Shown piece after piece: positions 701 to 28,122 of a stretch of 64,000 nucleotides of DNA. Each line of letters starts with the position of its first letter. Position 1 is the first letter of the stretch. The notes below the pieces were generated by a model. That model made no database searches, was not told where the DNA came from, and was given only the letters and a program-made list of their open reading frames with translations. Made by a program: the position numbers and the translations under genes. The stretch covers positions 258,502-322,501 of the forward strand of contig CALSRB010000005.1 of assembly GCA_943788655.1 (NCBI GenBank), read 5' to 3'. This stretch comes from Candidatus Poseidoniaceae archaeon. Its GTDB lineage: Archaea > Thermoplasmatota > Poseidoniia > Poseidoniales > Poseidoniaceae.

Positions 701-3700
701 TCATCGACTCCTTCCGAGGTCATAGATGGCACGTGATTGAGGTGCTGACCAGCCCGTTTCCTGCAATTGCATGAGGATGCTTCGTTCCTGTTCCTGATCG
801 TCGATGGCGCTTCGCACCCAGTCGGCTGCAGATTCACGGTCGTCCGCTTGCCAGTCTTCGAAGATGCTGAGGTCAATCTTGATTCTTGCTTTACGAACCT
901 TCGCCGAACCGTCTTCTTCTGGTGTTTCTTCGACGGCGACTTTCGAGGCCACCTTGGCTGCGGACACCTTACTCGGGCCCGAGCGGTTTCGTGGTGGACC
1001 AGAGGGGGCTTTGGATTGAGGCGGTCCTGATGTCGGACCTCGACCAGGTGGGCCACCGCTGGGTTTACCAGGCCCTCTTCCAGCAGGCCCTCGTCCCTTT
1101 GGCCCACCTGTAGGGGCTGGACTTGGTCGAGGTTTGCTTTGCTGCGGAGAAGCACGCGTTGATGGGAAGGAAGAAGAAGATGAACCATAATTGTCATCAT
1201 CATCATCCCAGTCATCATCGTCATCATCATCGTAATCGAATTCGTCACTTCTAACCAAGCGGCGGATAACAACCAGAAGCACCACGACGCCAATCAGTGC
1301 GCCAGCGCCCGCTAGAGCAGCGGTGTTTGGAGAAAGGCCGAACAATCCAGACGAGGTTTCATCGTCACTCGCAGATGCAATTGGGCATCCGTCATCATAC
1401 CCGTTCTCGCCAGCAGGCTCATTCGGGCAATTGTCATCATAATCGACGACGCCATCATTGTCAGCGTCACTCTGGGTTGGATCGCAACCGTTTTCATCGA
1501 CGGCGGTCTTGTAGCCAGGTTCTGTCTCAGGGCATAGATCTGGGTACGTTCCCGAAGCGTTGTCTCCATATCCATCTCGATCATAGTCTTCCCATTGGGT
1601 TGGGTTGCCTGCCAAACCTGTTGGTTCGAACAAGTCACGGTACCCGTCACCATCATCGATGCAACCTAAGAAATCAATGAATGAAGTCCCATTTTCAATT
1701 GGGCAGTCATCTGCATTTTGTCCATCGATGTTGTCGCCATAGCCATCACCATCTTGGTCAAACCACTGTGTGGCATCGGTCGGGAATGCATCTCCAGTTT
1801 GGTTTTCACGAAGACCGGAGGTGGCGTTCACAGAGTAGGTGTATGTACCCTTGTAACCATCGCCATCGAGGTCCTGCTCCAGTGCTGTTTCATCGGTACA
1901 GCCGGTGACGTCAACAGGGAAGCCTGCTGGTGTGCTTGGGCAAGCATCGTCTGCGTCGCTCACCCCATCGTCATCGCTGTCCAATTGTGCGGTTGAACAT
2001 CCATTCGCGTCGACTTCGGTTTCCACAGTAAGCGGACACAAATCAACAGGGTCGAACACACCATCACCATCAGAATCTGTTTCGCGCTGGGCTTCACTGC
2101 ATCCAATTGCATCCACGGCATCTTGGTACTCGGTTTGTGGACATTGGTCCATGTCATTCATCACGCCATCTTGGTCGTCATCGAGTTGGTTGTCAGCACA
2201 TCCTGCTTGATTGACCGTGAGTCCTGCGTCGGTGTTCGGACATGTGTCTTGTTCATTTGAGACAAAATCACCATCGTCGTCAGTGTCATCGATAAACCGA
2301 CATCCAATACCGGTTTCACCACCGATTGGCACTGTGCCTTCGAGCACACCAGCAATCGCGGTGCATTCATCTGCTTGGTAGCCTTCAGGGTTGTCTCCAA
2401 ATCCATCACCGTCGAAGTCGAGCCACTGAGTCGGTTCGAGAGGGAAGGCATCGGAGGAATCCTCCCATCCGTCGCCATCGGCGTCAGGGCATCCAAAGAC
2501 AGGGTTGGTGGAATTGCCCCAAACACCAGGGCATCCATCGAGTTCCAATCCGGCACCATTGTTGGTCATATCTTCATCTGAAAGGTTATAGAACGAAGTC
2601 CAACGGTCAGGGTGCCCATCACTGTCGTTATCTTCTGCTGCTGCGATGTCGTCAGGGAACATATCTGGGTTTGTCGCTCCTTGAGAGCTGTTATCACCAT
2701 AGCCGTCCCCATCGGAATCCGTCCATTGTGTTGGATCAAGTGGCCACATATCGGCACCCATGGATTCGTTCCACTCAAGGAAATCTCCAATGTCTGAGGG
2801 GTCCGAAGACCCGTCGAGGTCAGTATCTAAACAACCATTGCGGTCTCGCCATGAAGCACCCCAGTCCCATGGGCATGCATCCCCCGTCACGGTGTCTGAT
2901 TCGTTATCACCCCAACCATCACCGTCGTAATCGGCGTATTGAGATGGGTTGAACGGGAACAAGTCGCCAGTAGGGTTGTTTGGATCGAGGGGTGTTGCGC
3001 AGCAATCAGGCCCTGAATTGTCGCCGTAACCGTCCCCATCAGAATCCTTGGATTGCTTCCAGTTTAGAATGAACACATCGCCGTCGTAAAACGAGACATC
3101 GTTGTCAGACCAGCCGTCCTGATCAAAGTCAATGCAGCCCAGACGACCAAGCCATGAAGTTCCAGCTTCATCTTGGCAAGCATCATCCGTGTCCGCATAA
3201 CCATCGGAATCGAAATCAGAGCAACCATATGTGTAGTAGGCGGATGTGGCGGGGACTGTCGAGCAATCATCTGCCATTGGACCGTCGGGGTTATCGCCGT
3301 AATTGTCAGAATCGCTGTCTGCCCATTGATTGCCCAATGCAGGCAAATCATCAACGAGGTCAAACACAAGATCTCGGTCTGTGTCCTGATAAATTCTCAT
3401 TACGCTCACATCGTCGAGTGTGTCATCCCAAACGCCGAGATGGATGGTCCCATTGCCGTCTGTTTGTGCGTTGGTTTGACTTCCAGCCGTTTTGTAGCCA
3501 AACGAAAGGGTCGACCATGATGTGCTGTTCATGGAGGCAGCGTCTTTGGCAATCGCGTTCCATGTTAGGACGTTGTCAGAGCCTGTGCTGGTCATGAGAA
3601 GGTAATGCGCATCCATCACGATAAGATCCCAAGCGCCTTCCAAGTTCGATTCAGGTTGTGCTCCAAAGGCCACCCATTCGCTGCTGTTGGTGCGGGTGTA

Positions 3701-6700
3701 AATCGAAGGTGTCGGCGTGTTGCTGCGCAAAGCGAGCGTCGGCTCACTTCCCCCAACGAGATCGAGGTTGTATTGCGCCATTGAGCCCGCAGGTTGGGGA
3801 ACGACTGCGCTTGTCCAGTTGGTGTCGTTCGCACTGCGCTCATGAATCGAAAGGACACCCGTGCTTGTGAGGGTGGCTGCAATGATTGAACCGTTATCGG
3901 TCACTGAGAGGCGGAGATCAGAGGAAAGGTCAGTCAAACCAGTGATGTTGTGCAATTCAGTCGAAGTTGAGTTGATGACCCAAAGAGCGAGGTTTGCGTC
4001 AACACCGTCATCGTTGATGACCAAGACTCCAAGGGAACCATCGTGAAGATAGGCGGCTGATTGTTGCTCTGAAACGACTGCCATGGATGCTCCAGAGGCG
4101 AGTGGAGAGGGGTATTCGATCGCCCATGTGGTCCCACCAGCTGGTTGTCGGGCGAGTTCCAACGAATCGTTTCCAGCATTGCGATAAATCAACACCGTCT
4201 CGTTGTTGGATGATTCAAGACCTTGAGCCATGACGGACACTGGGCCATCGAGCAAGAGTTGAGATCGCACGAGGGAAGTGGTCCACCCAGTTTCGGATTC
4301 AATCGAGGTGAAGAGTTGGTCGGTTCCAATCGAGGCGAAGGCAAGGCGCTGTTGGCCCGAAGTATCAAGCGTCATGCCCAGATGCTCGCCGAATTGCCCC
4401 GTTGTAACAATTGATTGCTCAACCGCAGTGTAGCCCACGATTGTTCGATGCGTAAGACCGGTTTCGCCATCGGCTTGGTAGATGACAGGCCGTCCAGATG
4501 CCGTGGTTGTGAATGCGTATTCTCGGGTTTCGTCACTGCTCTCGACCACGATGGTCTCGCTCCAAACGCCAGCAGGTGTGGCATCGTCCACGTGCTCAAT
4601 GAAGTGGGATGCGTTGTTGGAGAAAGTGACAAACATGCTTGTTTCGCCACGGGCAGAGGTGCTGAGTTCTAACTGAGTGAGGCTGGACGAGTAGGTGAAG
4701 ACGGATGACTCCCAGTCTCTTTCCGAATGAATTTGGTAATTGAGGGTGTGGGATTCGGCGCTCATGTCCCGGCGGCTCAGAACGAGCTCGCTGAGTCCGT
4801 CACCGTCCAAATCACCTTGAGTGGCGGCCAAAAGGCCAATGTTTTCGCCGGTTTGGCCAGTCGCTAAAAGTTCCCAATCCGATCGCAATCCGATCGAGGA
4901 ACCTAGGATCAATTCCACTTGCCCGCTGTTTCCAGGGTTGGCTTGCATCATGAGCACATCATCGTATCCGTCTTCATTAACGTCGCCTGCAGGCTCAAAG
5001 GAGCGCCCAAGGACGGCGTTAGCCACCCCTGAGGAAAGGGTGTAATCGGGTTCTGCTGAGGAGGCAATCCCCTCAGAAGATCCATAGTAGGCCCAGACCT
5101 TACCGCTTCGGTATCCTGTACCGTTGAATGGTTCACCGAACATGAAATCATCAAAGCCATCTCCGTTGACATCGCCGAGGTAGTTTAACGACCAGCCAAG
5201 GAGTTTACCTTGCAAGTTTGATTGAATGCGTTGGTCGCATGTACCGTTGTAGCCCGTGGCTTGTCCAAAGAAAATCTCCACTGCCGAATACCCAAGTGGG
5301 CTAGGGAAACTTCCTGTGTTGGCGACAAGCAAATCACTCATTCCATCCCCATTCAGATCGCCGTTTGCGGCAATGGTTTGACCGAAACGAGGGCCATCCG
5401 TGCTTTGAGTGATGTTTCGAACGAAATCGAGACCAGAGGTGTTTCCACTGAAAATTTTGAGTTGGCCGTTGTTCTGAATGGTTTCAGTCACATCTTCGAC
5501 GTAAGTGTATGCAACCGCCACCAAATCGGACATTGAATCGTTGTTCATGGTTTCTGAAGCAGCAAGCGACCAACCGAGGGAGGTGCTGTCTTCTCCAGTC
5601 ACATTCCACCACGATGAAGTTTCGAGTCCCGAAGCGTTGCCGAGGTGAATGACAATCCGACCTGGTGCTCCTGTATAGGCTTCATCGGTGTCGTTCCAGC
5701 CAGGCGATCCGATGGCGACATCGGACAGTCCATCTCCGTTGAAATCGGCAACTGATAACCCGTGGCCAAACATCGCCCCGTCCATGTCGCCTTCAAGTGT
5801 GACATCTGCAACGAGCGAGGCTCCACTGGTTGAACCGTAATGGATGAGCACTCGTCCCATTTCTGCCCCTGTGCCGTCATAAGATGGTTCTGCAATCACA
5901 AGATCATCGAAACCGTCACCGTTCAAATCACCCATTTCAAGCGCCCCCTCATCGGCGCCTTGAGCCCCAATGATGGTGTGTGAAGGAGTTGGATTAATCC
6001 GACCGGTTTCTTGGCCTGAAAGACTTCGTAATAGCTGCAACGTCACATTCTCATCTTGACCGACGGCTGTGACGATTTGCTCGAGTGAATTTCCATCAAG
6101 CCCCATGCCGAGATGTGGCACGATGTTCGCATCTCGGAGCAGCACTCGGTGATCGTACATCATTCCGTCAACTCGGATCAATCGGATTTCACCTGCATCC
6201 GGGGCGGCATAGGCAATGTGGACCACCTCATGTTCATCCACTGCCAGTTCAATGTCCCTGCTCACAGGGCCTTGGTCGAGCATGGCATGTGACCATCGAG
6301 TGCCACTGAAATCAATCTCCCACAGCGAACCATTGGTATCGCGGAACACACCCCATTCGAGTTCGTTCTGACGAAGTCCAAGGCGGAAATCAGTTGGATT
6401 GACGTCCTCAACAATCGTTCGAACAAGCCATGTGGTTTCCAGATAAACTTGCCCTGCGTACGCCACACGTGCGACTTTGATGTCCGTTCCGTCAGCGTAC
6501 ATGATGTACGGTCGGCCGTTTTCGCTGATCGCGAGGGAGCAATCCACCAAACTCTCTTCAGAAGTTGAGGCGACAGTATCGACCAGAGCATCGTTCCAGC
6601 TGCCGTTCGAGGCTTGGGTTGCATAATGCACTTCACCCTCGGCGGTCGTCCAACAAAGATTCACAGATTCTCCACGAGCAAGGACCATATCGGGCGTACC

Positions 6701-6994
6701 GGGGGTTGAATTTTCAAAAATTGAATCTGTTGATTCTACCCAAGTGTTCAATCCAGATTCATCTCGGACAACACCCTGCACCAAGCCATCGAAGTCCAAT
6801 TGAGTCCCTGCAAAGTCGTGTCCATAGCCATTCGAAAAAGGCACATATTCACTGGTTTGGAGTACAGTCTGCTCGGAATCCAACGAAGCTGTTGGCATGG
6901 AATTACCGGCCAATGGGGTCATTGATTGAATCAAAAACAAGACCGTGATGGTCAGCGCCAAAGTTGGAAAGGAGACACTGCGTTGCTCGGCCAT
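701..6994 (-). CDS. giant type-I membrane surface protein (~2098 aa): FG-GAP (integrin-alpha-like) repeats plus thrombospondin-type-3-like Ca-binding repeats, C-terminal TM anchor, low-complexity cytoplasmic tail
   Basis: Track ORF 701..7138; start refined to ATG 6994 (MAEQRSVSFPTLALTITVLFLIQSM, hydrophobic signal-like). FG-GAP-like units include FNGDGLSDVAIGSPG, DLNGDGMSDLLVAN and DVNGDGFDDFMFGEP. There are more than 15 DxDxDGxxDxxD units, some canonical TSP3 DxDxDGxxDxxDxCP (DDDQDGVMNDMDQCP, DSDGDGVFDPVDLCP, DADNDGVVDYDDNCP). A single C-terminal TM (ALIGVVVLLVVIRRL) is followed by a poly-Asp run, Gly/Pro-rich GRGP repeats and a terminal ...KIDLSIFEDW... segment. N-x-S/T sequons are frequent. 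Confidence 0.8.
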   Translation of the reverse strand: MAEQRSVSFPTLALTITVLFLIQSMTPLAGNSMPTASLDSEQTVLQTSEYVPFSNGYGHDFAGTQLDFDGLVQGVVRDESGLNTWVESTDSIFENSTPGTPDMVLARGESVNLCWTTAEGEVHYATQASNGSWNDALVDTVASTSEESLVDCSLAISENGRPYIMYADGTDIKVARVAYAGQVYLETTWLVRTIVEDVNPTDFRLGLRQNELEWGVFRDTNGSLWEIDFSGTRWSHAMLDQGPVSRDIELAVDEHEVVHIAYAAPDAGEIRLIRVDGMMYDHRVLLRDANIVPHLGMGLDGNSLEQIVTAVGQDENVTLQLLRSLSGQETGRINPTPSHTIIGAQGADEGALEMGDLNGDGFDDLVIAEPSYDGTGAEMGRVLIHYGSTSGASLVADVTLEGDMDGAMFGHGLSVADFNGDGLSDVAIGSPGWNDTDEAYTGAPGRIVIHLGNASGLETSSWWNVTGEDSTSLGWSLAASETMNNDSMSDLVAVAYTYVEDVTETIQNNGQLKIFSGNTSGLDFVRNITQSTDGPRFGQTIAANGDLNGDGMSDLLVANTGSFPSPLGYSAVEIFFGQATGYNGTCDQRIQSNLQGKLLGWSLNYLGDVNGDGFDDFMFGEPFNGTGYRSGKVWAYYGSSEGIASSAEPDYTLSSGVANAVLGRSFEPAGDVNEDGYDDVLMMQANPGNSGQVELILGSSIGLRSDWELLATGQTGENIGLLAATQGDLDGDGLSELVLSRRDMSAESHTLNYQIHSERDWESSVFTYSSSLTQLELSTSARGETSMFVTFSNNASHFIEHVDDATPAGVWSETIVVESSDETREYAFTTTASGRPVIYQADGETGLTHRTIVGYTAVEQSIVTTGQFGEHLGMTLDTSGQQRLAFASIGTDQLFTSIESETGWTTSLVRSQLLLDGPVSVMAQGLESSNNETVLIYRNAGNDSLELARQPAGGTTWAIEYPSPLASGASMAVVSEQQSAAYLHDGSLGVLVINDDGVDANLALWVINSTSTELHNITGLTDLSSDLRLSVTDNGSIIAATLTSTGVLSIHERSANDTNWTSAVVPQPAGSMAQYNLDLVGGSEPTLALRSNTPTPSIYTRTNSSEWVAFGAQPESNLEGAWDLIVMDAHYLLMTSTGSDNVLTWNAIAKDAASMNSTSWSTLSFGYKTAGSQTNAQTDGNGTIHLGVWDDTLDDVSVMRIYQDTDRDLVFDLVDDLPALGNQWADSDSDNYGDNPDGPMADDCSTVPATSAYYTYGCSDFDSDGYADTDDACQDEAGTSWLGRLGCIDFDQDGWSDNDVSFYDGDVFILNWKQSKDSDGDGYGDNSGPDCCATPLDPNNPTGDLFPFNPSQYADYDGDGWGDNESDTVTGDACPWDWGASWRDRNGCLDTDLDGSSDPSDIGDFLEWNESMGADMWPLDPTQWTDSDGDGYGDNSSQGATNPDMFPDDIAAAEDNDSDGHPDRWTSFYNLSDEDMTNNGAGLELDGCPGVWGNSTNPVFGCPDADGDGWEDSSDAFPLEPTQWLDFDGDGFGDNPEGYQADECTAIAGVLEGTVPIGGETGIGCRFIDDTDDDGDFVSNEQDTCPNTDAGLTVNQAGCADNQLDDDQDGVMNDMDQCPQTEYQDAVDAIGCSEAQRETDSDGDGVFDPVDLCPLTVETEVDANGCSTAQLDSDDDGVSDADDACPSTPAGFPVDVTGCTDETALEQDLDGDGYKGTYTYSVNATSGLRENQTGDAFPTDATQWFDQDGDGYGDNIDGQNADDCPIENGTSFIDFLGCIDDGDGYRDLFEPTGLAGNPTQWEDYDRDGYGDNASGTYPDLCPETEPGYKTAVDENGCDPTQSDADNDGVVDYDDNCPNEPAGENGYDDGCPIASASDDETSSGLFGLSPNTAALAGAGALIGVVVLLVVIRRLVRSDEFDYDDDDDDDWDDDDDNYGSSSSSFPSTRASPQQSKPRPSPAPTGGPKGRGPAGRGPGKPSGGPPGRGPTSGPPQSKAPSGPPRNRSGPSKVSAAKVASKVAVEETPEEDGSAKVRKARIKIDLSIFEDWQADDRESAADWVRSAIDDQEQERSILMQLQETGWSAPQSRAIYDLGRSR

Positions 6995-7136
6995 AGCGTC
7001 TATACGCCCCCCCTCCTTGAAAACGCTTGTCGAATAATGACTGCTATGACCCCCGTAGGGGGTCACAATAATCCACTCGGATGCTTGTCGAAAAAAAGAG
7101 CGAGAAGTTGACAAAAGGGGGCCACCTGCTATTGCC

Positions 7137-7769: not shown

Positions 7770-8631
7770 GTAAGTAATCACGAATCATGGAAGAGTAATC
7801 GCCCTCTCCGTCCCACTTCATTGCATGTTCATCAACTCGAGCACGCTCGAGCGTTTGCTCAAACCCACCCCAGTCCTCAATCAAATTGAGGTTATAGGCC
7901 GCCTTTGGCGTGTAACCAGGCAGGAAATTCCTCCAAGTGAACGGCACTCGACCTGGAGTGATTCGGTTGACCATACCTACGATCGAGGTGTTACACGTGG
8001 TCAAGAAGGAGTGATACCATTCACCTTTGACAGCCAATGAATTGGCTTTGTTGGTTAATGCGTGAAGCAAGTCCTTCTCTTTGCCTGGAGGCGTGATGGC
8101 CCGGAACATGTAGTCCTTGTTACCTCGGGCATTGGTGCGCAGACCCAATAAATCCCGCTCAAAGCCAACCAATAGGTAGAGCTCAAAATGGCGCCAAAAA
8201 CCGAGCCACGGATGGTAACGCTGACCCTTTCTTCGGCGTGCCTCAAAGGAAAAGGAAAGGCATGTCCCATCATTGAATTCGAAAGTGAGGAAGGTGTGGG
8301 CCATGCCGTGAATGCTGTGGAAATGGTCGACAACAAACCACACATCTTTGATTTCATCTGCACGAACTTCAACGGTATCAGCCCATGATTCATCCCGATC
8401 CCGAGTCGATCTCCAAAAGAAATCTCGAACGTTGTTGAACCGTATGGAATCGCCGTTGACATCGGCCGTCGTCGTCCGTTCGCAATCGGAATTCCAATCG
8501 TCTTCCAATTGAGGAACCCGTGGCCGAACCCGAACCATCCAAATCAAAACTGACAGAATGAGAAAACCTACGATGCTGATGCCAATGTACCCGAGGATTG
8601 TCAACCAATCAAGTTCCATTCCATTCACCAC
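7753..8631 (-). CDS. hypothetical membrane-anchored protein (N-terminal TM, His/Trp-rich extracytoplasmic domain)
   Basis: 292-aa ORF with N-terminal hydrophobic segment LTILGYIGISIVGFLILSVLIWMV and no recognised catalytic motif. It overlaps the stop of the preceding convergent gene by 17 nt. Confidence 0.5.
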   Translation of the reverse strand: MVNGMELDWLTILGYIGISIVGFLILSVLIWMVRVRPRVPQLEDDWNSDCERTTTADVNGDSIRFNNVRDFFWRSTRDRDESWADTVEVRADEIKDVWFVVDHFHSIHGMAHTFLTFEFNDGTCLSFSFEARRRKGQRYHPWLGFWRHFELYLLVGFERDLLGLRTNARGNKDYMFRAITPPGKEKDLLHALTNKANSLAVKGEWYHSFLTTCNTSIVGMVNRITPGRVPFTWRNFLPGYTPKAAYNLNLIEDWGGFEQTLERARVDEHAMKWDGEGDYSSMIRDYLPKGPL

Positions 8632-9965
8632 TTATGCCAGATCCGTAGGTCCTGATCCCACCAATCCATCGAGCCATCTGGTTGTTGGCGCCAGAGGGTT
8701 CCGGAGTCATCGGTTGTGGTTGGCATGCCTTCTGGGTCGGGTGAGCCATCAGGAAGGATTGTTGGGGTCGGGCCTAGTGAACGAAGTCCACTGCCCTCCT
8801 CTTCATCTTTGACCCGTACGAGCATGAAGAAGACAATGAATGCTACGATGAGCCCGAGGGCGCCAATTGAATACCAACCGACGGATTCCGTTTCCGTATC
8901 TTCTCCAAAGGAACGAGTTGGAAGAGCTTCCGCTTCTTCTTTCGTTAAATCCTCGCTTGGTTGCCGGACGAGGTTGAGACCGTGAACGGTTCGAATCTGC
9001 TCATTATTGATGACTTCAAGGCTGATCAGATGAACCCCCGCAGGAAGCACGGAACAGTCGTAAGTGTTGCTTTCTGTGCCGGGCAATTGTTGACCCTGAA
9101 CCGACCAAATTTTGTCAAAGGAGGTGAAATCAACACCAGCCATGTTTGGGACCATCGTGATTAGGCACGGCGTATCTGTGGTGTTGCCATCACCACGAAC
9201 GCTTAACGAAAAGGCAGGTGCTGGTCGATTGTGAATCGTGATGTTGAGCCACGATTCAGTGGTTTGCCCCAAGTCATTGCGATAGGCTTCTTTGAGCATG
9301 TATTCACCCGCTGGCCAATGGGAACAGTTCAGTGAAGTTTGGTTATCGAGAACGGTGAACGGCGCTCCTGAGAAGGTACGAACGCCTTCTGCGGCGTACC
9401 GAGGTCCAGTTTCATCTGCAAAGAGTCGGTCAATCGTGCACGCATCCCCTGTCTCAATCAATGCTGGAGCCTCAAGATCCAAGGTGATTTGGGGTGTTTT
9501 CAGCGCGGGCCTGAGGACATATGTTGGCAATTGAATGGTGGTGATGGTCTCGCCGTTTTGGTTCACAATTTCAAGCCGAAGTGCGTGCTCGCCTTGAGCC
9601 CAAGCATCGTAAATGATGCTGGCATTTGATTGACCTGAAAAGGACATGGTGCGGCTGTCATGGACCTCCCGATCTTTGTGAACACCATACAGTCGCAGCT
9701 CGATATTGGAGAACTCATTTGTGGTGTTCATGATCACAACCACTCGAATCGCATCTGCATCGCCGTCTTGATTGAGGTCCAGCGTATCGTTGCGGAGGGC
9801 CACTAAAGCGAGGCCTTCTGCTTCCAAAGCCTCCTCCGAAGACGAGGTTTCTGCACCAACGGTTTCCACCAAACCAAGCGGAGCGCCCATGCTGGCCAAC
9901 AGCACAATCAACATCACAAGGCTGCTTCGACGTCCTTCAAGCATTGATTTCACCCTCCGTAACAT
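8625..9965 (-). CDS. type-I membrane surface protein (446 aa) with signal peptide, Ig-like beta-rich ectodomain, C-terminal TM and acidic/aromatic cytoplasmic tail
   Basis: N-terminal signal-like LVMLIVLLASMGAPLGLVETVGA. C-terminal TM WYSIGALGLIVAFIVFFMLV followed by tail ...DGSMDWWDQDLRIWHKW. Same architecture as the neighbouring giant proteins. Confidence 0.65.
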   Translation of the reverse strand: MLRRVKSMLEGRRSSLVMLIVLLASMGAPLGLVETVGAETSSSEEALEAEGLALVALRNDTLDLNQDGDADAIRVVVIMNTTNEFSNIELRLYGVHKDREVHDSRTMSFSGQSNASIIYDAWAQGEHALRLEIVNQNGETITTIQLPTYVLRPALKTPQITLDLEAPALIETGDACTIDRLFADETGPRYAAEGVRTFSGAPFTVLDNQTSLNCSHWPAGEYMLKEAYRNDLGQTTESWLNITIHNRPAPAFSLSVRGDGNTTDTPCLITMVPNMAGVDFTSFDKIWSVQGQQLPGTESNTYDCSVLPAGVHLISLEVINNEQIRTVHGLNLVRQPSEDLTKEEAEALPTRSFGEDTETESVGWYSIGALGLIVAFIVFFMLVRVKDEEEGSGLRSLGPTPTILPDGSPDPEGMPTTTDDSGTLWRQQPDGSMDWWDQDLRIWHKW

Positions 9966-12486
9966 CTGGCGCTGGTACTGGCAGCGGAGGGAGGTTTTCG
10001 AGCGGAATCATGCCAGTTTGCGGTTGGGCTTGACTCATCTCTTCGAGAGAACGAGATTGTTTTTCCTCGAAGAGAGCCTCTTCTAAATCGTGTTCATTGC
10101 GGCCCGATTTGACGACCAGTGCTGCGCTCGCACCTAAGATGAAGCCGAGACCGATGACGAGGTAGGTCAACCATGAGGCTTCAGGATTCTCACCGAGAAT
10201 GGCAACGGCTGCAGCGAATTCGCCATACTCATCCGACCATCCATCGTTGTTTGAATCAACGCACCCTTGCACATCGCGCTTGGAAGTACCAGCCTGCTCA
10301 GGACAGTCATCCCGGAAGGCGCCAAGTGGCACATCACCAAATCCATCACCATCGAGGTCTCGCCATTGCAAGGCTTCTGTTGGGAAGGCATCTGCGGCTC
10401 CTTGTGGGTGAGCTTCCCACGATGCTGTGGGATCCGACCAACCGTCTCCATCAGTGTCACGGCAGCCAAGGCGGTCAAGCATGGAAGTGCCGCGCACTTC
10501 CGGACATGCATCGCCCTGGTTCCCTTCTTCCCGATCGCCGTAACCATCACCATCAGAATCTCGCCATTGGGTCGGCTCATGGATGAATGCATCGCCAAGG
10601 TCCGACCAGCCATCGCCGTCAGTGTCAGCACAGCCCCATCGGTCGCCGCCTGAGGAAGGGCCGACTGAGGTGCCTGCTTGGTCAGGGCATACGTCAGCGG
10701 TTGTCCCTCGTGGGTTGTCCCCGCGTCCATCGCCATCGATGTCATGCCATTGAGTTGGATCCATCGGCCATGCGTCACCACGGCCACCCGGGCTTGCAAG
10801 CCAAGCATTTGTCGGGTCTGACCAGCCGTCTTGGTCGCTGTCTGGGCAGCCCCATCGGTCGAAGGTGGAAGCACCCTCGGTGGTCTTGCAACCATCGCCA
10901 CGGTAGGCATTTCGAAGGGTCTGACCATCGAAGTATTCGATGTTGTCACCGTAGCCGTCATCATCGGTGTCATGCCATTGACTTCGGTCTTCGGGGAAAG
11001 CATCGGCAAAACCGGCTGGGTGAGCAATCCAGTCGTTCGTTGGATTCGAAAATCCATCTTTGTCTGTATCTCGGCAACCCAAACGGTCGGCGTAAGAGAT
11101 CCATCCGGATTCTACTTCTTCTGGAGAAGAGAACACGCATACATCGCCCTCATAACCTTCTAAGTTGTCACCGTAACCATCACCATCTGTGTCACGATAT
11201 TGCGTGGGGATGAAGGGAAAATCATCGACTTGAGAGGCACCGTAGGTTTGGTTGTCGCCCCAACCATCCTCGTCGGTGTCAAGCCATTGAGTGGGATTAT
11301 CTGGGAAGTCGTCAACGAGGTTTGCCCCTTCGCTCTGGTTGTCACCCCAGCCATCAAAATCACGATCGCGCCACTGTGTTTCTTCGAACGGGAACGCGTC
11401 CGAACCATTGACGACCGTCCAGTTGACATCACCATCAGAATAGGTGTCGCCGTCCGAATCCGTGCAGCCATAACGGTCGCCGGATGAACTTCCGGTGATG
11501 AAAGGGCACGCATCCGGTGTTGTGGCATTGAAGAGATAGGAGCCTATGCCCCAACTGAGTCGAGAGGTGTTCCAGGCTTGATCAGCCCAGTTGTCGCCAT
11601 AACCATCAGAATCTGTGTCATTCCATTGGGTTGCATCGAGAGGGAAGGCATCACCTGTACCAACGGGGTGGGCGAACCAAGCGGTCACGCCATCAAGACC
11701 ACCTGGGTCCTCATCCGAGTAGCCGTCGCCGTCGGAATCAAGGCATCCAAAACGGTCCAATGAAGAGTAGCCACGTCGATAGGGGCAATGATCGCCCTGG
11801 TAGCCGTCAAGGTTGTCACCGTAATTGTCGTTGTCGCTGTCGAGCCATTGTGTTGGTTCAAGGAAAAAGGCATCAGCGCCGTTTTGTGGCAACCATCCCG
11901 CTTCGGGATCAGACCAGCCATCGCCGTCGGTGTCAGGGCATCCTTTCCGATCATTGGAAGAGGAACCGACCACATCGTCGCAATCATCGTCGATGTCAAC
12001 AAAGCCATCTTCATCGCTGTCTCGGTTGGTCTTGTCAATCGAAGGCGTGATTGTGTAATCGAACCCATCGTTGCACCATGAGTCGTCCGCTTTGACCTTG
12101 AAGTAAACGAAACTTTGTGCCCCAACGGTGGTTGAGAGGGTTTTCGAAGCAGCATTGTCGTCGACATAGGAGTCCACAATGGTCCCGCCTTGGGCGTTTA
12201 GCAGGGAAACCCGTCCTTGCCACCCATCACCAGGGCACCACCACGCAGGACCGTTCATGGTTCCCGAAAAAGAAATCTGAACAATGTCGCCTTTCTTTGC
12301 TTCAATCTTCCAATAATCGGACTGATCATTTCCCGCATCGCAGTCGGGGTCGCAGACATAACCGCTGGAAGTAACACCGTCTGTCAGGGGCGTAGCGCTC
12401 TGAATATTGTTATCGGCAACAGCAGGTGGAATTGTACAAAGCAGCAAGGCCGCGAGCCATAGGGCCAGCACACGCCTCGCGAGCAT
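9937..12486 (-). CDS. giant surface protein (~850 aa) made almost entirely of ~17 thrombospondin-type-3-like Ca-binding repeats, C-terminal TM anchor
   Basis: Track ORF 9937..12678; start refined to ATG 12486 (MLARRVLALWLAALLLCTIPPAVA signal). Alternating repeat flavours are seen (DTDGDGWSDPEAG / DSDNDNYGDNLDG / DSDGDGYSDEDPG / DTDEDGWGDNQTY ...), each flanked by a Cys pair. C-terminal TM LTYLVIGLGFILGASAALVV followed by an acidic tail. Confidence 0.8.
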   Translation of the reverse strand: MLARRVLALWLAALLLCTIPPAVADNNIQSATPLTDGVTSSGYVCDPDCDAGNDQSDYWKIEAKKGDIVQISFSGTMNGPAWWCPGDGWQGRVSLLNAQGGTIVDSYVDDNAASKTLSTTVGAQSFVYFKVKADDSWCNDGFDYTITPSIDKTNRDSDEDGFVDIDDDCDDVVGSSSNDRKGCPDTDGDGWSDPEAGWLPQNGADAFFLEPTQWLDSDNDNYGDNLDGYQGDHCPYRRGYSSLDRFGCLDSDGDGYSDEDPGGLDGVTAWFAHPVGTGDAFPLDATQWNDTDSDGYGDNWADQAWNTSRLSWGIGSYLFNATTPDACPFITGSSSGDRYGCTDSDGDTYSDGDVNWTVVNGSDAFPFEETQWRDRDFDGWGDNQSEGANLVDDFPDNPTQWLDTDEDGWGDNQTYGASQVDDFPFIPTQYRDTDGDGYGDNLEGYEGDVCVFSSPEEVESGWISYADRLGCRDTDKDGFSNPTNDWIAHPAGFADAFPEDRSQWHDTDDDGYGDNIEYFDGQTLRNAYRGDGCKTTEGASTFDRWGCPDSDQDGWSDPTNAWLASPGGRGDAWPMDPTQWHDIDGDGRGDNPRGTTADVCPDQAGTSVGPSSGGDRWGCADTDGDGWSDLGDAFIHEPTQWRDSDGDGYGDREEGNQGDACPEVRGTSMLDRLGCRDTDGDGWSDPTASWEAHPQGAADAFPTEALQWRDLDGDGFGDVPLGAFRDDCPEQAGTSKRDVQGCVDSNNDGWSDEYGEFAAAVAILGENPEASWLTYLVIGLGFILGASAALVVKSGRNEHDLEEALFEEKQSRSLEEMSQAQPQTGMIPLENLPPLPVPAPDVTEGEINA

Positions 12487-12711: not shown

Positions 12712-13995
12712 TCAGAGTGCGTTTGGTGCTTGATTGCCTAACAACGAAGCGTAAATTCGCTCAAAATCTTCCGCATTGTGTTCGTATGTATATTGAGACA
12801 ATACCCGCTCCCTACCAGCTTTCGCCTTGTTGATTCGCTGCTCAGGAGCATCGAGCATTCGACAGACAGACTTCGCCAAATCGATTGGGTCTCCTGAGTT
12901 GAAGAGATCACCAACCGAATGATCGATCATTTCGGTCAAAGGAGGTTGATTTACGGTTACAACTGGTGTGCCACTGGCCAATGATTCGAGTGGAATCAGA
13001 CCCTGCCCCTCATAGTAGGAGGGGTAGACAACGAGATCTGCAGAACGGAAGTGCTGTGCTAAATCCTCAAACGACATACTGCTGCGAATAAATACCGCAT
13101 GTTCGACGCCCAATTTTCGAGCATTTTTTAGCAGTCTTTTCTTCATGTGTCCCCTGCCAACGATGACCAATCTGGCACCTGGATGCTCTTGTAAAATAGC
13201 AGGGAGGGCTCGAATGAGAGTCATGTAGCCCTTTCTGGCGACGAGTCTTCCAACTGCTAACATCATGGGAGTTTTTGTCTCAGCCATGTAACTCAAGGCA
13301 GCTTCGTCTCCACAATCATAAGATGAACGTATTTTTTCATGATTTAATTGCTCTTCCTCATCGTCTTGATTCGGAGGTCGAAACACCTTATGGTCGCATC
13401 CCCATAGCACAACTTCACAATTAAAATTGTCAGATGGCTTGTACCAATTTTCGAATTCTGATAGGGTCGATTTAGAATTCGAAACACATATACTTGATTC
13501 GAGGATTCCTGCTCGTTCATATTTTGAATAATACGTACCAGTCAACCTTATTGCAAGGTCGTTTGGATTTCTCCAAGTAGCGGACTCCTTAGCCTTCGCC
13601 GCCCGAATCACTCCTTGCTTCTCGCCCAACCAAGAACCGTGCAAAGAGGAGCAAACTGGAGCGATGTTCTCTTCCATAAATCTAAACTCTTTCCTAGAAA
13701 AAGACGCTAATGGTAAATGGATGTGGATCACATCGATCGCTTCTAATCTGTTGAGATGCTTCAGGGCCTTTAACGAGTTTTTAGCATAGGAACGAGTAAA
13801 CGCCATCGGGGCCTTCAACCAAGGCACTTCGATAATGGTCACACCTTGTTGGGCTGGAGCCTTTCCTTTGTGTGCTCGTGTGATGATGGTGATGCTGTGC
13901 CCACGTGCCGCCAAATGGCCTGCAAGATGGAACACCACCGAGCCAATCCCCCCCCATCGGGGAGGGTATTCACCCGACACCATGACGATGTGCAT
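12712..13995 (-). CDS. glycosyltransferase family 4 (GT-B, group 1)
   Basis: Track ORF 12712..14301; start refined to ATG 13995 (MHIVMVSGEYPPRWGGIGSVV, the typical GT4 N-terminus). C-terminal half has a GT4 EX7E-like region (PSYYEGQGLIPLESLASGTPVV). Divergent from the GT2 gene at 14102. Confidence 0.75.
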   Translation of the reverse strand: MHIVMVSGEYPPRWGGIGSVVFHLAGHLAARGHSITIITRAHKGKAPAQQGVTIIEVPWLKAPMAFTRSYAKNSLKALKHLNRLEAIDVIHIHLPLASFSRKEFRFMEENIAPVCSSLHGSWLGEKQGVIRAAKAKESATWRNPNDLAIRLTGTYYSKYERAGILESSICVSNSKSTLSEFENWYKPSDNFNCEVVLWGCDHKVFRPPNQDDEEEQLNHEKIRSSYDCGDEAALSYMAETKTPMMLAVGRLVARKGYMTLIRALPAILQEHPGARLVIVGRGHMKKRLLKNARKLGVEHAVFIRSSMSFEDLAQHFRSADLVVYPSYYEGQGLIPLESLASGTPVVTVNQPPLTEMIDHSVGDLFNSGDPIDLAKSVCRMLDAPEQRINKAKAGRERVLSQYTYEHNAEDFERIYASLLGNQAPNAL

Positions 13996-14101
13996 GACGG
14001 TCCGAGTGCGCACTTGGGTTTCAATGTCACCGAAATGAATCACCACCTCCTTCAACTTCTCGTTCCAATGCTTTGAAGGGGGTTGTGTTTGTCGGAGAAT
14101 C

Positions 14102-14875
14102 ATGGGCGAAAAACTCCCAGTTACCGTGACGGTGATTCTTCCAACTCGAAACGAAGAGGAAGCATTAGGTCCGACCATTGACGCAATCCCTCGAGGATGG
14201 TGTAAAAACCTCGAAATTATGATTGTTGATGGAAATTCCAGCGACCGAACACGTGAAATCGCCCTCGAAAAGAAAATTCGAGTCCACCTCGAAGACCGCA
14301 AAGGATACGGTCGAGCCTACAGAACTGGGTTTGACGTGGCTAAAAACGACATCATCGTGACAATGGATGCAGACTGCACCTACCCTGCTGAACTCGTGCC
14401 AACCCTCGTGAAGCGCTTGCTGGATGACGACCTTGATTTCATCACATGCGATCGACTCTCGCTTGCTGAAGAGGGTTCCATGCCCGGCATCCATGGATTT
14501 GGTAACTGGGCGCTTTCCTTCACTGCTCGACTCTTGTTTGGTTACGGAATCAAAGATTCCCAATCCGGCATGTGGGTGTTCAGGAAATCCATCTTTGACA
14601 ACGAAGCAATGCGTCCAACCAACGACGGTATGCCCCTTTCTGAAGAGATGAAAATTCTCGCTCGTCGTGTCCTTGGAAAGAACAAGGCCGTAGAAATCTC
14701 CGTCCCATACCGTCCACGTGTTGGTGAAGCAGAAATCCACACATGGGGCGATGGATGGAAGAACTTCAAATTCCTCTTCGCTCGCCGAGTGGGTCTTCAC
14801 CGAACTCGAACACCGTGGGGCGCACGCCCCTCAAACCCTGATTCGACCAATGGCGACATTCCTGAACAAGCTTGA
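14102..14875 (+). CDS. glycosyltransferase family 2, dolichyl-phosphate mannosyl/glucosyltransferase (DPM1/Agl)-like
   Basis: N-terminal VILPTRNEEEAL ... IMIVDGNSSDRT ... MDADCTYP are the GT2/GT-A DxD-type motifs typical of Dpm1-like enzymes. Confidence 0.75.
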   Translation: MGEKLPVTVTVILPTRNEEEALGPTIDAIPRGWCKNLEIMIVDGNSSDRTREIALEKKIRVHLEDRKGYGRAYRTGFDVAKNDIIVTMDADCTYPAELVPTLVKRLLDDDLDFITCDRLSLAEEGSMPGIHGFGNWALSFTARLLFGYGIKDSQSGMWVFRKSIFDNEAMRPTNDGMPLSEEMKILARRVLGKNKAVEISVPYRPRVGEAEIHTWGDGWKNFKFLFARRVGLHRTRTPWGARPSNPDSTNGDIPEQA

Positions 14876-14886
14876 GTTGATGCTCT

Positions 14887-15522: not shown

Positions 15523-15523
15523 A

Positions 15524-20341: not shown

Positions 20342-20458
20342 GTCCTTAGGCCGTTGCAAATGCACTTCAATGGTTCGGCTTTGTGCATGCGCTGACCGTA
20401 TTCGGGCCTCATGTCATTACTTCGCAACCAATAAGACCAGTCGGCGATTGGCCAAATC

Positions 20459-20692: not shown

Positions 20693-20702
20693 GGTGAGAA
20701 AA

Positions 20703-20936: not shown

Positions 20937-23147
20937 TCACAACAGTGAATGAAGTTGTGCCTCAAGGGCTTTTGCCGCTCGTGGGCACCCCGCTGCTCGA
21001 TGTTGTGTGATGGCTTCACGGAGCGCAATCCTTCGCATGTTGGGTTGTAGTTTCGCTTTGCATGTCCACCATCGAGCGTGCAATCGGTGAAGGGTTGCGC
21101 TGGTTGCAGTTTGTGTTGGCTCTTTGATGAGATTGAACATCTGTTTGGCCTTGATATCATCTAAGCCAATCAATTGCTCGACCAACGAAAGACGCAATGC
21201 ATCGGCCCGGATGCTGTTGGTTTGGGCTTCGATGGCCTCCTGCATACGTTCGGTATCGAGGGATGTGGCATCGCTTGGTTTGGTCGCAAAGAGAGCCGCT
21301 TTTGCCTCCATACCCAGCAAAAGTGGTTGGGCGAATCCTGCAATCCCTGCAAGCGAAGCACGAAGGCGTTCGGCTCGTTCAAAGTCATCTTCACAGAGGG
21401 CAAGAGCATGCTGAATCATAGAGAGGGCCACAAGCGTGACAGAACGCTGTTCTGGGTGGCCTTCTGGAACTTTCACCTTCGCAAGGTACTGTTTCACATC
21501 AGTGGAGAGGGAGGGGTCTACATGGTCGAAGACTCGATCATCCATTCGCCTTGAGGCAGCAGCGAGTGCCATTCGATTGATGTCGGCCTGATCGGACGAA
21601 TCCAAACCTTCTTCAATGATTTCATCCGCATCTTGGATGCGCCCTTCAAGCATGGCCAATCCAAGCGCTAAGTGGCGGGATTCTACGGAATCTTCCATCC
21701 CTTCGAGGTGGCGACGGACGTGTTCTGGCTCGCATCGCTCGATGGCCACTTTCCCTGCTAAATAATGCAAATGTGATGGCATTGTTGAAACCTTAATCGC
21801 TTGCTCAAGCAACACGGAAAAGGCGCCAGAATGAGTTTCCAACAACCGTTCCATTTCCGCATCAAGCTGCGTGTCGATGCCTTCTTCGAGGCTGGCAATT
21901 CGGTGATAGAGAAGAATAATCTGATCATCTGCTGTTTCTGCCAAACCCTCCCAGTGTTTGACTGCCGCCTTGTGCAACCTGCGCTTCGTGTCATCATCAA
22001 GAGCAGACCTGCGGACGTTGCGAACCAAATGTTGGATTTCCATTTTCTCAAGGTTCGAAGTCCAGCGCAGGAACGCATAATCATCCAATATGCCGACGAC
22101 TTCGCTGTCGAACGCTTTGCTTGCTTCGATGGGCATTGGAACCATCACGATGTGGTCAAGCCCACTCCGAGTCGAATGATCGAGGGTTGACAGAACAACA
22201 TTCTCGACATACGATTGGACATCAGCTCCCGCCTCCGGCAAGGGCGAACCTTCCTCATGGAGAAGAATGGCTAGCGGGTGACCACCGAGGCTTTCTGCGA
22301 TGTGCATCCGTTCCCCTTCCGCTATTGAGTCTCCTAAGAGCTGCGCGGCATCCTTGACTTCGAGCGAGGGGACGGCGATTCGAGGAAGAGCTTCCGGGAA
22401 TGAAAGAGGTTCACGCCCGATGAGGAGCATGTGGGCTGCTTGTGCAGCGTCAAGTTCTTTGCAAAAGGCACGGATTGAGGCAATGTGACGCTCTGGAATG
22501 AGGTGGGCATCATCGATGACGAGCACATCACCTTTGCACTTCATTGCAGCGTATTCAGCAAGAGCATGGTTGTTTTTGGGAAAGGGACCTTTGAAGCCCC
22601 ATTGATCGCAGAGGGTGTGCAAGTCGGTGAATTCACCAACCTGTGCCCAACGAACATTTGTTCCTGAATCGAGAAGGTGCTCACTGACCAGACCCCCCAC
22701 CGTTGTTTTTCCAATCCCGGGCAAACCACTCAACACCATGCAGTGTTCTTGGAGAATGCTTTCACTGACCTCGGCGGCAAGGTGATGGCGCCCGTGCACT
22801 TCCCCAAGCACTGGTAAAGCACCGAATGAATTGCCTCGAGCCGTCTTTTTCCGAACTTTTGCATCGCCGAGCGAGTCGAGTGTGTCTCGCCCCTGATCGG
22901 TGAGGTGGTAGACATGCCTTCGTCGAGAACCCCCGCCAATCACGTGTGCTTTTCGTTTGAACACGAGGCCACTGCTTTCAAGGCCACTCAACGGGGCGTT
23001 GAGTGCGCTTCGAACAACGCCAAGTGCTTCACTGATACCCGGAAGGGAGAGGTGACGGGTGACGTCCCAAGCTTTCTCCATCGCTGGTGAAAAGCCTCCG
23101 AGCCAGCGCAAAATACGCTCTTGAGGACCGGAAAGACCACCAACCAT
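20937..23147 (-). CDS. STAND/AAA-like P-loop NTPase with N-terminal winged-helix DNA-binding domain and long C-terminal alpha-helical (TPR-like) region, 736 aa
   Basis: N-terminal ~90 aa wHTH-like (ISEALGVVRSALNAPLSGLESSGLV...RRRHVYHLTDQG). Walker A LSGLPGIGKTTVGG and Walker B GDVLVIDDAHL. The remaining ~450 aa are Leu/Ala/Glu-rich helical repeats. Confidence 0.7.
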   Translation of the reverse strand: MVGGLSGPQERILRWLGGFSPAMEKAWDVTRHLSLPGISEALGVVRSALNAPLSGLESSGLVFKRKAHVIGGGSRRRHVYHLTDQGRDTLDSLGDAKVRKKTARGNSFGALPVLGEVHGRHHLAAEVSESILQEHCMVLSGLPGIGKTTVGGLVSEHLLDSGTNVRWAQVGEFTDLHTLCDQWGFKGPFPKNNHALAEYAAMKCKGDVLVIDDAHLIPERHIASIRAFCKELDAAQAAHMLLIGREPLSFPEALPRIAVPSLEVKDAAQLLGDSIAEGERMHIAESLGGHPLAILLHEEGSPLPEAGADVQSYVENVVLSTLDHSTRSGLDHIVMVPMPIEASKAFDSEVVGILDDYAFLRWTSNLEKMEIQHLVRNVRRSALDDDTKRRLHKAAVKHWEGLAETADDQIILLYHRIASLEEGIDTQLDAEMERLLETHSGAFSVLLEQAIKVSTMPSHLHYLAGKVAIERCEPEHVRRHLEGMEDSVESRHLALGLAMLEGRIQDADEIIEEGLDSSDQADINRMALAAASRRMDDRVFDHVDPSLSTDVKQYLAKVKVPEGHPEQRSVTLVALSMIQHALALCEDDFERAERLRASLAGIAGFAQPLLLGMEAKAALFATKPSDATSLDTERMQEAIEAQTNSIRADALRLSLVEQLIGLDDIKAKQMFNLIKEPTQTATSATLHRLHARWWTCKAKLQPNMRRIALREAITQHRAAGCPRAAKALEAQLHSLL

Positions 23148-23247
23148 GCTCTACCGAAGCACAGGCTCCTTTCTAACCACCGCTTTTGTTGCATCACCTC
23201 CGCCAACCAAGGGTTTCCTTTTTTGGGGGCGGCGGGAAGGAAAGGGC

Positions 23248-27900: not shown

Positions 27901-28122
27901 CTCATAGGTGCCTTCAATCCAATCCTGCATGTTCGGTGTTCCATCGTCTGAATCGTCGTACGTATCACAGATTCCATCAACGGCAACCCCGGGATCCTTG
28001 TCACACGATGCCATACCAGCTGCCGCAGCCATGGGGGCAAAGATCGAGACGGCCATCAAAGCAATCAGCACGTGGGCGAGGGCTTGCTGACGAAGGTTCG
28101 ACAAAACAGTGTGCTCGCTCAT
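24976..28122 (-). CDS. giant type-I membrane surface protein (1048 aa), beta-rich ectodomain of unknown fold, C-terminal TM plus basic then acidic cytoplasmic tail
   Basis: N-terminal signal-like VLIALMAVSIFAPMAAAAGMAS. C-terminal TM YPAILVILLLLFV is followed by RRRRRKRKKKRARK and then an acidic tail ending ...LLQDLGDDRFE. The stop abuts the uvrC stop (convergent). Confidence 0.7.
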   Translation of the reverse strand: MSEHTVLSNLRQQALAHVLIALMAVSIFAPMAAAAGMASCDKDPGVAVDGICDTYDDSDDGTPNMQDWIEGTYEFTMLGTEQIQLELQWAIREFDREALGFTDPFITSALANDGLDEDDGAPADFIRNYFDQETAGSGSPTVGSKLKIELSNAIEDSLESSFGEVAVTTDYSNQYIEGTTTTACSIDPTSDAAEEGASQNDVFNPPICISTSALIQLDQSTFNLLPNPDLDLERAYQGLLVMGTEITSTFDFVARPGHLATYTVNPPSYATIDAVDASGTLIEHTGASPYNSSSWTLDHRLAQPTDSDLSQGVELTLKHRNRTGTSTVDVPSGSKALDLHITLDIEDESAATLGFTAGMHYLDQATMDDWGVSLISVAERATVPVVTADGIRLAYHNGLVDLDNFTSQFPVDVIAEGVSSAVAGIETIEMNDLTWVSTQEAVGTQLSGGLNYSHSTGCSEVAPAGVELRFCVEGEDAMGTNHPVYLTTTSQPFSMRLLDIISENNDDETLAEFINVLTEDDFERVLNAGLSLRTTLSDDFLSGIVPSNLPPSEVTLEIILPTWVRTAEGNDRLILKETIGENDSNVISFAGTNPYDWRQVVRDDYQNVKCQTTQRTCVTTALEMDASSIDINEFTQTLSVELGLDADVSVHRIMIPQEYIPSTDDHSITMEVLPSDLVRLALDIASRVENPINRTYNLSDILGSVCDFNYSVCNENLTLVFTSDGLTAFVKRVGELFTQFTHEAAARLMDQEELNFKSVDITDFEVKTRLKGVGAPDLIVSDEEPLSLTLTIPKVTFKLQLDGDWGRVFGGDVDGLQISLITDTMRSTFVEPMSMMMQSITGMLTNGIVGWGGVTLPNGGDSTDTLSYRLDFNSTLVPEFELPLNGPLTLLMPPGITLENLESTQGNIVVRSVDGRQEITYTLPAGDVDDTISFQLHFSWMYFFVQFWKYPAILVILLLLFVRRRRRKRKKKRARKAAAIASKPQIGNDEFADLSGFTSTALHGELDELRDFNNDATPPIPPMDLPMETTVPSFDDTLLQDLGDDRFE

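Follow-up and report, generated by a model that had tools for sequence, protein, structure and literature searches.

Integrin alpha chains combine a seven-bladed FG-GAP propeller, with Ca2+-binding Dx[DN]xDG loops in 3–4 blades, with thigh and calf-1/2 domains, a single transmembrane helix of type-I orientation and a short tail bearing a membrane-proximal GFFKR (KxGFFxR) motif, and they pair obligately with a beta subunit (betaI/VWA domain). Bacterial integrin-type/VCBS FG-GAP propellers have seven blades, carry a Ca2+ site in almost every blade and occur in tandem (PMC3192720, PMC8023676); the examples in PMC3192720 are without a transmembrane helix. Acidic, Cys-containing DxDxDGxxDxxDxCP repeats are found in bacterial TSP3 proteins (5wtl, MtsC, PA1041, TraB), and haloarchaeal S-layer-type glycoproteins have a signal peptide, a very acidic ectodomain, many N-x-S/T sequons, a C-terminal anchor and an AglJ-like family 2 glycosyltransferase (GT2) nearby. 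Marine group II (MGII) archaea are uncultured and among the most abundant microbes of the surface ocean. For these organisms, 'multiple adhesion domains' were noted in the genome published in 2012 (CM001443.1, as cited in PMC4511931), hypothetical proteins with Ca-dependent adhesin domains were enriched in particle fractions (PMC4511931), 'thrombospondin genes' were common across Poseidoniales (PMC6461757) and Ca-binding modules were specific to Poseidoniales (PMC9258230). Here, five genes (A–E) within a 64,000-nt stretch (the window) of a Candidatus Poseidoniaceae archaeon genome (assembly GCA_943788655.1, contig CALSRB010000005.1, positions 258,502 to 322,501, forward strand) were compared with these systems. 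Their products are read as Ca-stiffened, probably N-glycosylated display or adhesion proteins of the MGII cell coat, which we consider the likeliest account while holding it with some reserve.

The five open reading frames (ORFs) were all on the minus strand where a first-pass annotation of the window had placed them (Table 1), and their coding total of 18,150 nt bore out its estimate of ~18 kb. Start codons picked for A–E agreed with orthologue lengths. Each protein has an N-terminal hydrophobic segment after basic residues; by hydropathy, its only other hydrophobic helix lies close to the C-terminus. Arg or Lys follows that helix in 27/27 A and 22/22 E orthologues examined, and the large domains are therefore predicted to face outward and not the cytoplasm. 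From hydropathy and flanking charges all five proteins are of type-I (Nout–Cin) topology, with signal-peptide cleavage presumed, and the annotated plan of signal peptide and single C-terminal transmembrane helix thus held throughout, with positive charge on the inner side. The acidity that had been attributed to the ectodomains was also recovered: pI was 4.05–4.4 for A–E and 4.65–9.4 for 12 other window proteins (mostly cytoplasmic enzymes), and acidity is therefore specific to A–E and not proteome-wide. Length and position of the A–E families are conserved across the order. A–E are probably Sec-exported, C-terminally anchored, order-specific proteins that would lie at the cell surface. The five cytoplasmic tails matched no Pfam family. 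Archaeosortase/PGF-CTERM processing was ruled out, as no such NCBIfam match was obtained and the tails after the transmembrane helix (57–187 aa) are too long. Thus A–E share the features listed above with haloarchaeal S-layer-type glycoproteins but differ from them in having no S-layer homology, no PGF-CTERM match and tails unlike a sortase signal.

Protein A comprises a signal peptide, three predicted beta-propellers, a Ca-repeat stalk, a transmembrane helix (residues 1892–1910) and the tail. About 100 full-length relatives (~2100 aa; identity 100% down to 31%) were retrieved, and all those with a source name were labelled Poseidoniales, Poseidonia or Euryarchaeota metagenome-assembled genome (MAG). 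Residues 31–1230 were modelled with AlphaFold (27 orthologues; pLDDT 86, pTM 0.72). The model is entirely beta, and from its strand periodicity three tandem propeller-like domains are predicted. The triple-propeller proteins DDB1, SF3b130 and CPSF160, matched when the model was searched with Foldseek, are consistent with this arrangement. The middle domain has seven four-strand blades (model residues 309–728) and aligned by Foldseek with the integrin alpha5 headpiece (TMt 0.66–0.67 over ~500 columns, 17% identity); it also gave a Pfam FG-GAP match (E 2.5e-15). When the A-family profile was run against the PDB, the top 60 matches were integrin alpha chains (alpha5/alphaV, best ~3e-22), covering the Ca-binding blades only and partly reflecting what has been crystallised. 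Dx[DN]xDG loops are present in 6/7 blades (residues 356, 417, 546, 608, 671 and 728).

An integrin-alpha layout had been proposed in the first-pass annotation for the combination of FG-GAP repeats, single transmembrane helix and short tail. The propeller and the single helix stood, for A only, as FG-GAP repeats occur in none of B–E, and the remainder did not. In A the FG-GAP propeller is internal, between two other propellers; a ~455-aa propeller-like domain and a 680-aa Ca-repeat stalk take the place of the thigh and calf-1/2 domains; Ca motifs are in six of the seven blades, as opposed to 3–4 in integrins; and the tail is 187 aa, with no GFF motif anywhere in A. No VWA or integrin-beta family turned up in general scans of ~35 window ORFs. 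What A has in common with integrin alpha is an FG-GAP propeller on an anchor of type-I orientation, which does not make it a member of the family. A is like the bacterial FG-GAP proteins in its seven blades, its Ca sites in almost every blade and its tandem propellers, but is archaeal and transmembrane-anchored with a conserved cytoplasmic tail end. Set beside the proteins of PMC3192720, this anchor with its conserved tail end and the EF-hand gene that invariably lies downstream are somewhat unusual. The picture of integrin origins is unchanged by A, prokaryotic FG-GAP propellers being already known.

The repeat array of A (26 Cys, 25% Asp+Glu) is conserved more strongly than any other part of A and holds 17 of the 23 Dx[DN]xDG motifs of the protein. 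Canonical TSP3-like DxDxDGxxDxxDxCP units are mixed in it with TQWxDxDGDGYGDN units, and strict DxDxDGxxDxxDxC(P) copies number 4. Protein C consists of a signal peptide, a ~125-aa N-terminal non-repeat domain, 16 Dx[DN]xDG repeats (DNA ~10192–12036), a transmembrane helix (10111–10167) and a 57-aa tail. Its units are mostly an alternating pair, GCxDxDGDGWSD / TQWxDxDGDGYGDN, with one strict copy, and it is 57–77% identical to its orthologues. Pfam TSP_3 (PF02412) and TSP3_bac gave no match to A or C even at E≤10, and PF02412 was carried by 3/120 A relatives among the matches listed. Sub-threshold NCBIfam matches for the A array were throspo3_MtsC (4e-10), PA1041 (1e-12) and TraB (4e-10); the C profile matched a sole PDB entry, 5wtl (bacterial OmpA-family, E 1e-5), and eukaryotic thrombospondin/COMP was not matched by either array in profile searches of the PDB. 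Of the FG-GAP plus TSP3 repeats assigned to A by the first-pass annotation, the FG-GAP part was thus recovered by profile search, as was the beta-helix of D described below, and TSP_3 was not; C, with its N-terminal domain and without a TSP_3 match, is not the pure TSP3 array it had been taken for. Judged by their motifs and profile matches, the arrays of A and C are a divergent bacterial-type Dx[DN]xDG repeat and not Pfam TSP_3. They may share the acidic, Cys-containing repeats of the bacterial TSP3 proteins, the only sequences to match the arrays, but the matches are far below curated cut-offs and most units belong to the derived alternating pair. Recent amplification of repeats at the DNA level was ruled out: just one tandem repeat was found, a GAT-rich 12-mer at 1197–1237 (3.4 copies), and this is a GAT tract encoding poly-Asp. 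The tract encodes residues just inside the membrane in the A tail, and its length varies among orthologues.

The A-type stalk was also found under other heads. P0099 and P0100 (~1900 aa) have a signal peptide, a Peptidase_S8 subtilase domain, 26–28 DxDxDG repeats and a C-terminal transmembrane helix, with 35% identity to the A stalk, and are predicted to be cell-surface proteases on an A-type tether. In some Poseidoniaceae an extra gene stands between the cyclophilin and Trm5 genes (L031, 6055–8775). Its 906-aa product begins with a signal peptide and has a GDSL (FGDSLSDMGN) esterase/lipase motif in its head, followed by a TSP3-like Ca array, a transmembrane helix and a tail; an extra stalk gene is also present in L028, L029, L033, L036, L059, L066 and L083 (at about 7 kb). 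That array and anchor also carry subtilase and GDSL-esterase-like heads argues for a generic display stalk, and suggests that the array may be a general spacer.

Protein D is made up of a signal peptide, a right-handed beta-helix (~60–650), PKD/Ig-like modules (~800–1505), a transmembrane helix (1514–1532) and a 73-aa tail, and its orthologues are ~1600 aa. Pfam Beta_helix was matched in 3 stretches (E 5e-22). The profile matched the PKD domains of KIAA0319L in the PDB (3e-13), and PKD, PKD_4 and Big_13 appeared as faint matches in the orthologues; by phmmer no PDB entry was matched, the PKD modules being found by profile only. The parallel beta-helix with Ig-like modules of the first-pass annotation was thereby recovered.

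Protein B (signal peptide, ~330-aa ectodomain, transmembrane helix, 61-aa tail) was without a Pfam, NCBIfam or PDB match. That it is built of D-like Ig modules was considered and is unproven (BLASTP of B against D, E 0.078; hhalign probability 3%). A strongly conserved Trp-rich motif, G-x-LWR-x3-DG-x2-DWWD-x5-W, is present in the B tail (8628–8810, minus strand); it is reminiscent of short beta motifs of the WW or DUF2510 type and is without a Pfam family. Protein E has a signal peptide, a ~900-aa ectodomain, a transmembrane helix (944–962), a poly-basic stop-transfer sequence and an 86-aa tail. Its AlphaFold model is mixed alpha/beta and of moderate quality (pLDDT 64), and gave only noise by Foldseek against the PDB (TM-score ≤0.12). 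No Pfam or NCBIfam family was matched, the profile gave 0 matches to PDB sequences, and E contains zero Dx[DN]xDG / DxDxDG motifs. Run against 1.84 billion representatives, the E profile recovered its own family only (253 proteins), whose distant members were without an informative Pfam match; by these searches E is an orphan family. A Ca-binding or beta-rich ectodomain, annotated for all five proteins, was therefore found in part: Dx[DN]xDG motifs in A and C and beta folds in A and D, as against a mixed alpha/beta E without a Ca motif and a B without an assigned fold.

N-x-S/T sequons were counted against the number expected from composition. A has 33 (16.9 expected, P<5e-4), D has 33 (16.8 expected, P<5e-4) and B has 7 (3.1 expected, P 0.02). 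Among orthologues, the excess was retained for A (27 sequences, median 1.88-fold, z 4.1) and for D (17 sequences, z 2.0–4.9). Sequon density in the ectodomains was 0.9–2.2 per 100 aa, compared with 0.37 in the other window proteins compared. The sequon-dense ectodomains of the first-pass annotation are thus those of A, D and B. A and D, and B also, are probably N-glycosylated.

Two glycosyltransferase genes are interleaved with A–E at 12712–14875, divergent as annotated: GT4 on the minus strand, most likely starting at 13995, and GT2 on the plus strand. The best NCBIfam matches of GT2 were a haloarchaeal dolichyl-phosphate (Dol-P)-hexose transferase and AglJ (both ~4e-29), and its nearest solved relative was Pyrococcus furiosus DPMS (5mlz, 9.6e-12). 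GT2 scored below the curated cut-offs (101 bits vs 375 and 325), and no equivalog is assigned; from these matches the label 'Dpm1-like' seems fair. GT2 is 75–92% identical to its orthologues, distant relatives included. Nothing ties the glycosyltransferase genes to A–E in particular. The earlier reading of N-glycosylated surface proteins is therefore kept as probable: the type-I topology, the conserved sequon excess of A and D and the presence of GT2 and GT4 in the block point towards it.

The same annotation had treated the region as an island. A variable or horizontally acquired surface-glycosylation island could be suspected where large surface proteins adjoin glycosyltransferases, and gene content does vary, at one slot between D and GT2 that holds TPMT, PPK2, SOD or no gene and through the extra stalk protein that some species have between cyclophilin and Trm5. 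Gene order was otherwise kept. In a scan of GTDB species representatives with the protein E alignment, 198 relatives were obtained, with CM001443.1 as the best match, and 80 of them were kept; nearly all of the 80 carried a Poseidoniales or a euryarchaeote/Methanobacteriota MAG label. Almost every species representative with enough sequence has its genes in the order S15 peptidase, cyclophilin, Trm5, E, UvrC, ATPase, D, and in about 80 species cyclophilin and S15 peptidase share synteny with E and D. Loci whose A orthologues are of 51%, 37% and 34% identity kept the order D, GT2, GT4, C, B, Lnb_N, thiamin pyrophosphokinase, A, EF-hand gene. Among the five loci compared over this part (L001–L005), L005 is the sole exception, other genes filling the glycosyltransferase slot. 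Genes for thiamin pyrophosphokinase, a thiopurine-methyltransferase-like (TPMT) protein, an AAA/STAND-like ATPase, UvrC and Trm5/Tyw2 are interleaved among A–E. GC is flat across the window (0.49–0.56), no tRNA was found near the block, and the window is colinear with CM001443.1 (a 2.06-Mb MG-II chromosome, 2012) at 87.5% nucleotide identity over 23.1 kb. As gene order is conserved down to ~35% identity and housekeeping genes are interleaved, the region is a vertically inherited conserved core block of the Poseidoniales chromosome and not an island, an interpretation to which we attach almost no probability. One locus that carries the whole archaeal block (E, UvrC, D, Trm5 and its other genes; L074, NZEQ01000058.1) is filed under a 'Verrucomicrobiales bacterium' MAG, probably through a binning or labelling error.

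With the locus already in a genome published in 2012 and the protein class noted before, the present analysis adds the conserved block, the shared stalk, the architecture of A and the finding that B and E are orphans. The earlier MGII reports concern the same organisms (and CM001443.1 the same locus) and, where they treat adhesion and thrombospondin genes, take them as evidence of attachment; they give domain or KEGG orthology counts only. No description of the conserved block, the triple propeller on a stalk, orphan E, the C-B-DUF4105 operon or an EF-hand gene paired with A was found in the papers searched.

In the account preferred here, A–E would form part of an outer coat. Three beta-propellers would be the head of A and the small N-terminal domain that of C, both set on Cys-rich Dx[DN]xDG arrays, which the ~10 mM Ca2+ of seawater may load and stiffen into spacers holding the heads off the membrane. 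D would show its beta-helix on a string of PKD modules to comparable effect. The heads most likely serve adhesion or substrate capture by binding to polymers, particles or other cells; N-glycosylation, of A and D and probably of B, would run via the archaeal AglB pathway, which the neighbouring GT2 and GT4 could plausibly feed, and the anchored cyclophilin and S15 peptidase would fit a neighbourhood of extracytoplasmic folding and processing. The published adhesion, thrombospondin and Ca-binding annotations agree with attachment by a surface coat. Several points weigh against this account. C and E are without a sequon excess, as are the E orthologues; B and E have no assignable fold; Pfam TSP_3 is blind to the repeats, and Ca binding is read from the Dx[DN]xDG motif alone. 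GT2 and GT4 are absent from the block in L005, and GT2, being so conserved (75–92%), is probably a general housekeeping enzyme and not dedicated to A–E. The account is built on sequence and models of an uncultured organism, and no ligand can be named.

A–E (or E, or D alone) might instead be a lattice or glycocalyx standing in for a canonical S-layer, with a role mainly in mechanics and protection and not in adhesion. The conserved length and position of all five families is what core structural parts would show, a C-terminal transmembrane anchor with N-glycosylation is typical of archaeal S-layer glycoproteins, and no description of the MGII envelope was found in the literature searched. Archaeal S-layers, however, usually consist of 1–2 proteins, A–E match no known S-layer family in Pfam or NCBIfam, and propellers and beta-helices on long stalks resemble binding or enzyme heads; a purely structural envelope is accordingly thought possible but on the unlikely side. 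If those heads were enzymes, the beta-helix of D (polysaccharide lyase/hydrolase-like) and the outer propellers of A would degrade high-molecular-weight organic matter at the surface. The A-type stalk and anchor do carry a subtilase and a GDSL-esterase-like head elsewhere, a signal-anchored S15 peptidase is within the block, and MGII have been inferred to degrade protein and polysaccharide (PMC6336850, PMC6461757). Against this, no catalytic family was found in A–E with Pfam or NCBIfam, no solved lyase or hydrolase was matched by the D sequence, and right-handed beta-helices and propellers are equally often binding modules, so that tethered catalysis by A and D is judged unlikely.

The tail of A allows a further interpretation. 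It contains the poly-Asp tract and a segment rich in Pro, Gly and basic residues, and ends in a conserved domain of ~45–60 aa (~DNA 704–877); mean column conservation over residues 2051–2097 (~47) was 0.66, compared with 0.44–0.50 for the remaining tail. A gene encoding a ~500-aa protein (conserved N-terminal domain, P/E/Q-rich linker, EF-hand pair, C-terminal zinc ribbon) begins 80 nt past the A stop on the same strand, and an orthologue follows A at every A locus examined (window and L001–L005), with A identity down to 34%. A could thus be an adhesion receptor, with its integrin-alpha-type propeller and single transmembrane helix, that signals through the 187-aa tail to the EF-hand/zinc-ribbon protein. 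This is considered quite improbable: A is without thigh/calf domains and GFFKR, neither a beta subunit nor a VWA partner came up in the window scans, no known domain was recognised in the tail, adjacency is the sole link to the EF-hand protein, and FG-GAP propellers are common in non-signalling prokaryotic surface proteins (PMC3192720, PMC8023676).

C, B and the DUF4105/Lnb_N gene overlap (C/B by 29 nt, B/DUF4105 by 7 nt) and their order is kept in L001–L005, so that they form an apparent operon. DUF4105 has been described as the domain of a Bacteroides lipoprotein N-acyltransferase (PMC11573676) and of a lipid-targeting type VI secretion system toxin (PMC12994826). A more far-reaching proposal can be made from these neighbours, the signalling part of which is allowed by the adjacency of A and the EF-hand gene. 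A and the EF-hand/zinc-ribbon protein would be an adhesion-to-cytoplasm signalling pair, one that works like integrin outside-in signalling but had its own origin around an FG-GAP propeller of bacterial type, and the C-B-DUF4105 operon would serve lipid-linked processing of the surface coat. We regard this combination as speculative and very doubtful; if true, it would place a signalling pair and lipid-linked coat processing in the planktonic archaea that are most abundant in surface seawater. For the display or adhesion proteins preferred above, five order-specific surface proteins would offer targets for metaproteomics, antibodies or labelling linked to fluorescence in situ hybridisation, virus-receptor studies and the interpretation of cryo-electron tomography, and a reusable Ca-repeat stalk with a transmembrane anchor would indicate how MGII, living in Ca-rich seawater, could present both binding heads and hydrolases.

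Table 1. Coordinates of genes A–E, of the parts of A and of neighbouring genes, in window positions unless a locus is named.
Feature	Coordinates (nt)	Residues in A	Strand	Basis or remark
EF-hand + zinc-ribbon gene, cytoplasmic product	1..619		-	5' part only, runs off window; directly downstream of A; orthologues after A in L001-L005
Gene A, 2097 aa	701..6994		-	ORF; full-length orthologues
A cytoplasmic tail, 187 aa	704..1264		-	Hydropathy, orthologue alignment
A Ca-repeat array	1340..3379	~1206-1885	-	Motif scan, conservation
A third beta-propeller-like domain, all-beta, 7-8 blades, no Pfam family (predicted)	3380..4744	~751-1205	-	AlphaFold, Foldseek
A FG-GAP propeller, seven blades	4745..5974	~341-750	-	Pfam, profile vs PDB, Foldseek
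A first beta-propeller, ~6 blades, no Pfam family (predicted)	5975..6904	~31-340	-	AlphaFold, all-beta, four-strand periodicity
Lnb_N/DUF4105 protein, one N-terminal transmembrane helix	7753..8631		-	Pfam Lnb_N 1e-19; position kept in L001-L005
Gene B, 446 aa	8625..9965		-	ORF, hydropathy
Gene C, 849 aa	9937..12486		-	ORF, hydropathy, motif scan
GT4 glycosyltransferase, 427 aa from ATG at 13995	12712..13995		-	Pfam Glycos_transf_1 2e-33, Glyco_transf_4
GT2, Dpm1/AglJ-like polyprenyl-phosphate hexose synthase-like, no transmembrane helix	14102..14875		+	NCBIfam, PDB matches
Gene D, 1605 aa	15524..20341		-	Pfam Beta_helix; profile vs PDB
Gene E, 1048 aa	24976..28122		-	ORF, hydropathy
Cyclophilin peptidyl-prolyl isomerase (PPIase), signal peptide + C-terminal transmembrane helix	29362..30369		-	Pfam Pro_isomerase 4e-35; same conserved block
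S15 X-Pro dipeptidyl peptidase, N-terminal signal anchor	30904..32805		+	Family scan, topology
EF-hand/zinc-ribbon orthologues	L003 16542-18065; L004 16307-17782; L005 16476-18128

Other genes of the window were recorded in passing. Between D and UvrC, the 736-aa product of a gene at 20937–23147 (minus strand) combines a PadR-like winged helix with an AAA_22/STAND-like NTPase domain; it occupies the same position in most relatives, at an identity of just 31–53%. A 1206-aa FtsX-type permease with pentapeptide repeats in a large extracytoplasmic loop is encoded at 40300–43920 (minus strand). A second glycan-related pair lies at 56483–58953, where a gene for a GDP-mannose 4,6-dehydratase on the minus strand diverges from one for another GT4 on the plus strand.

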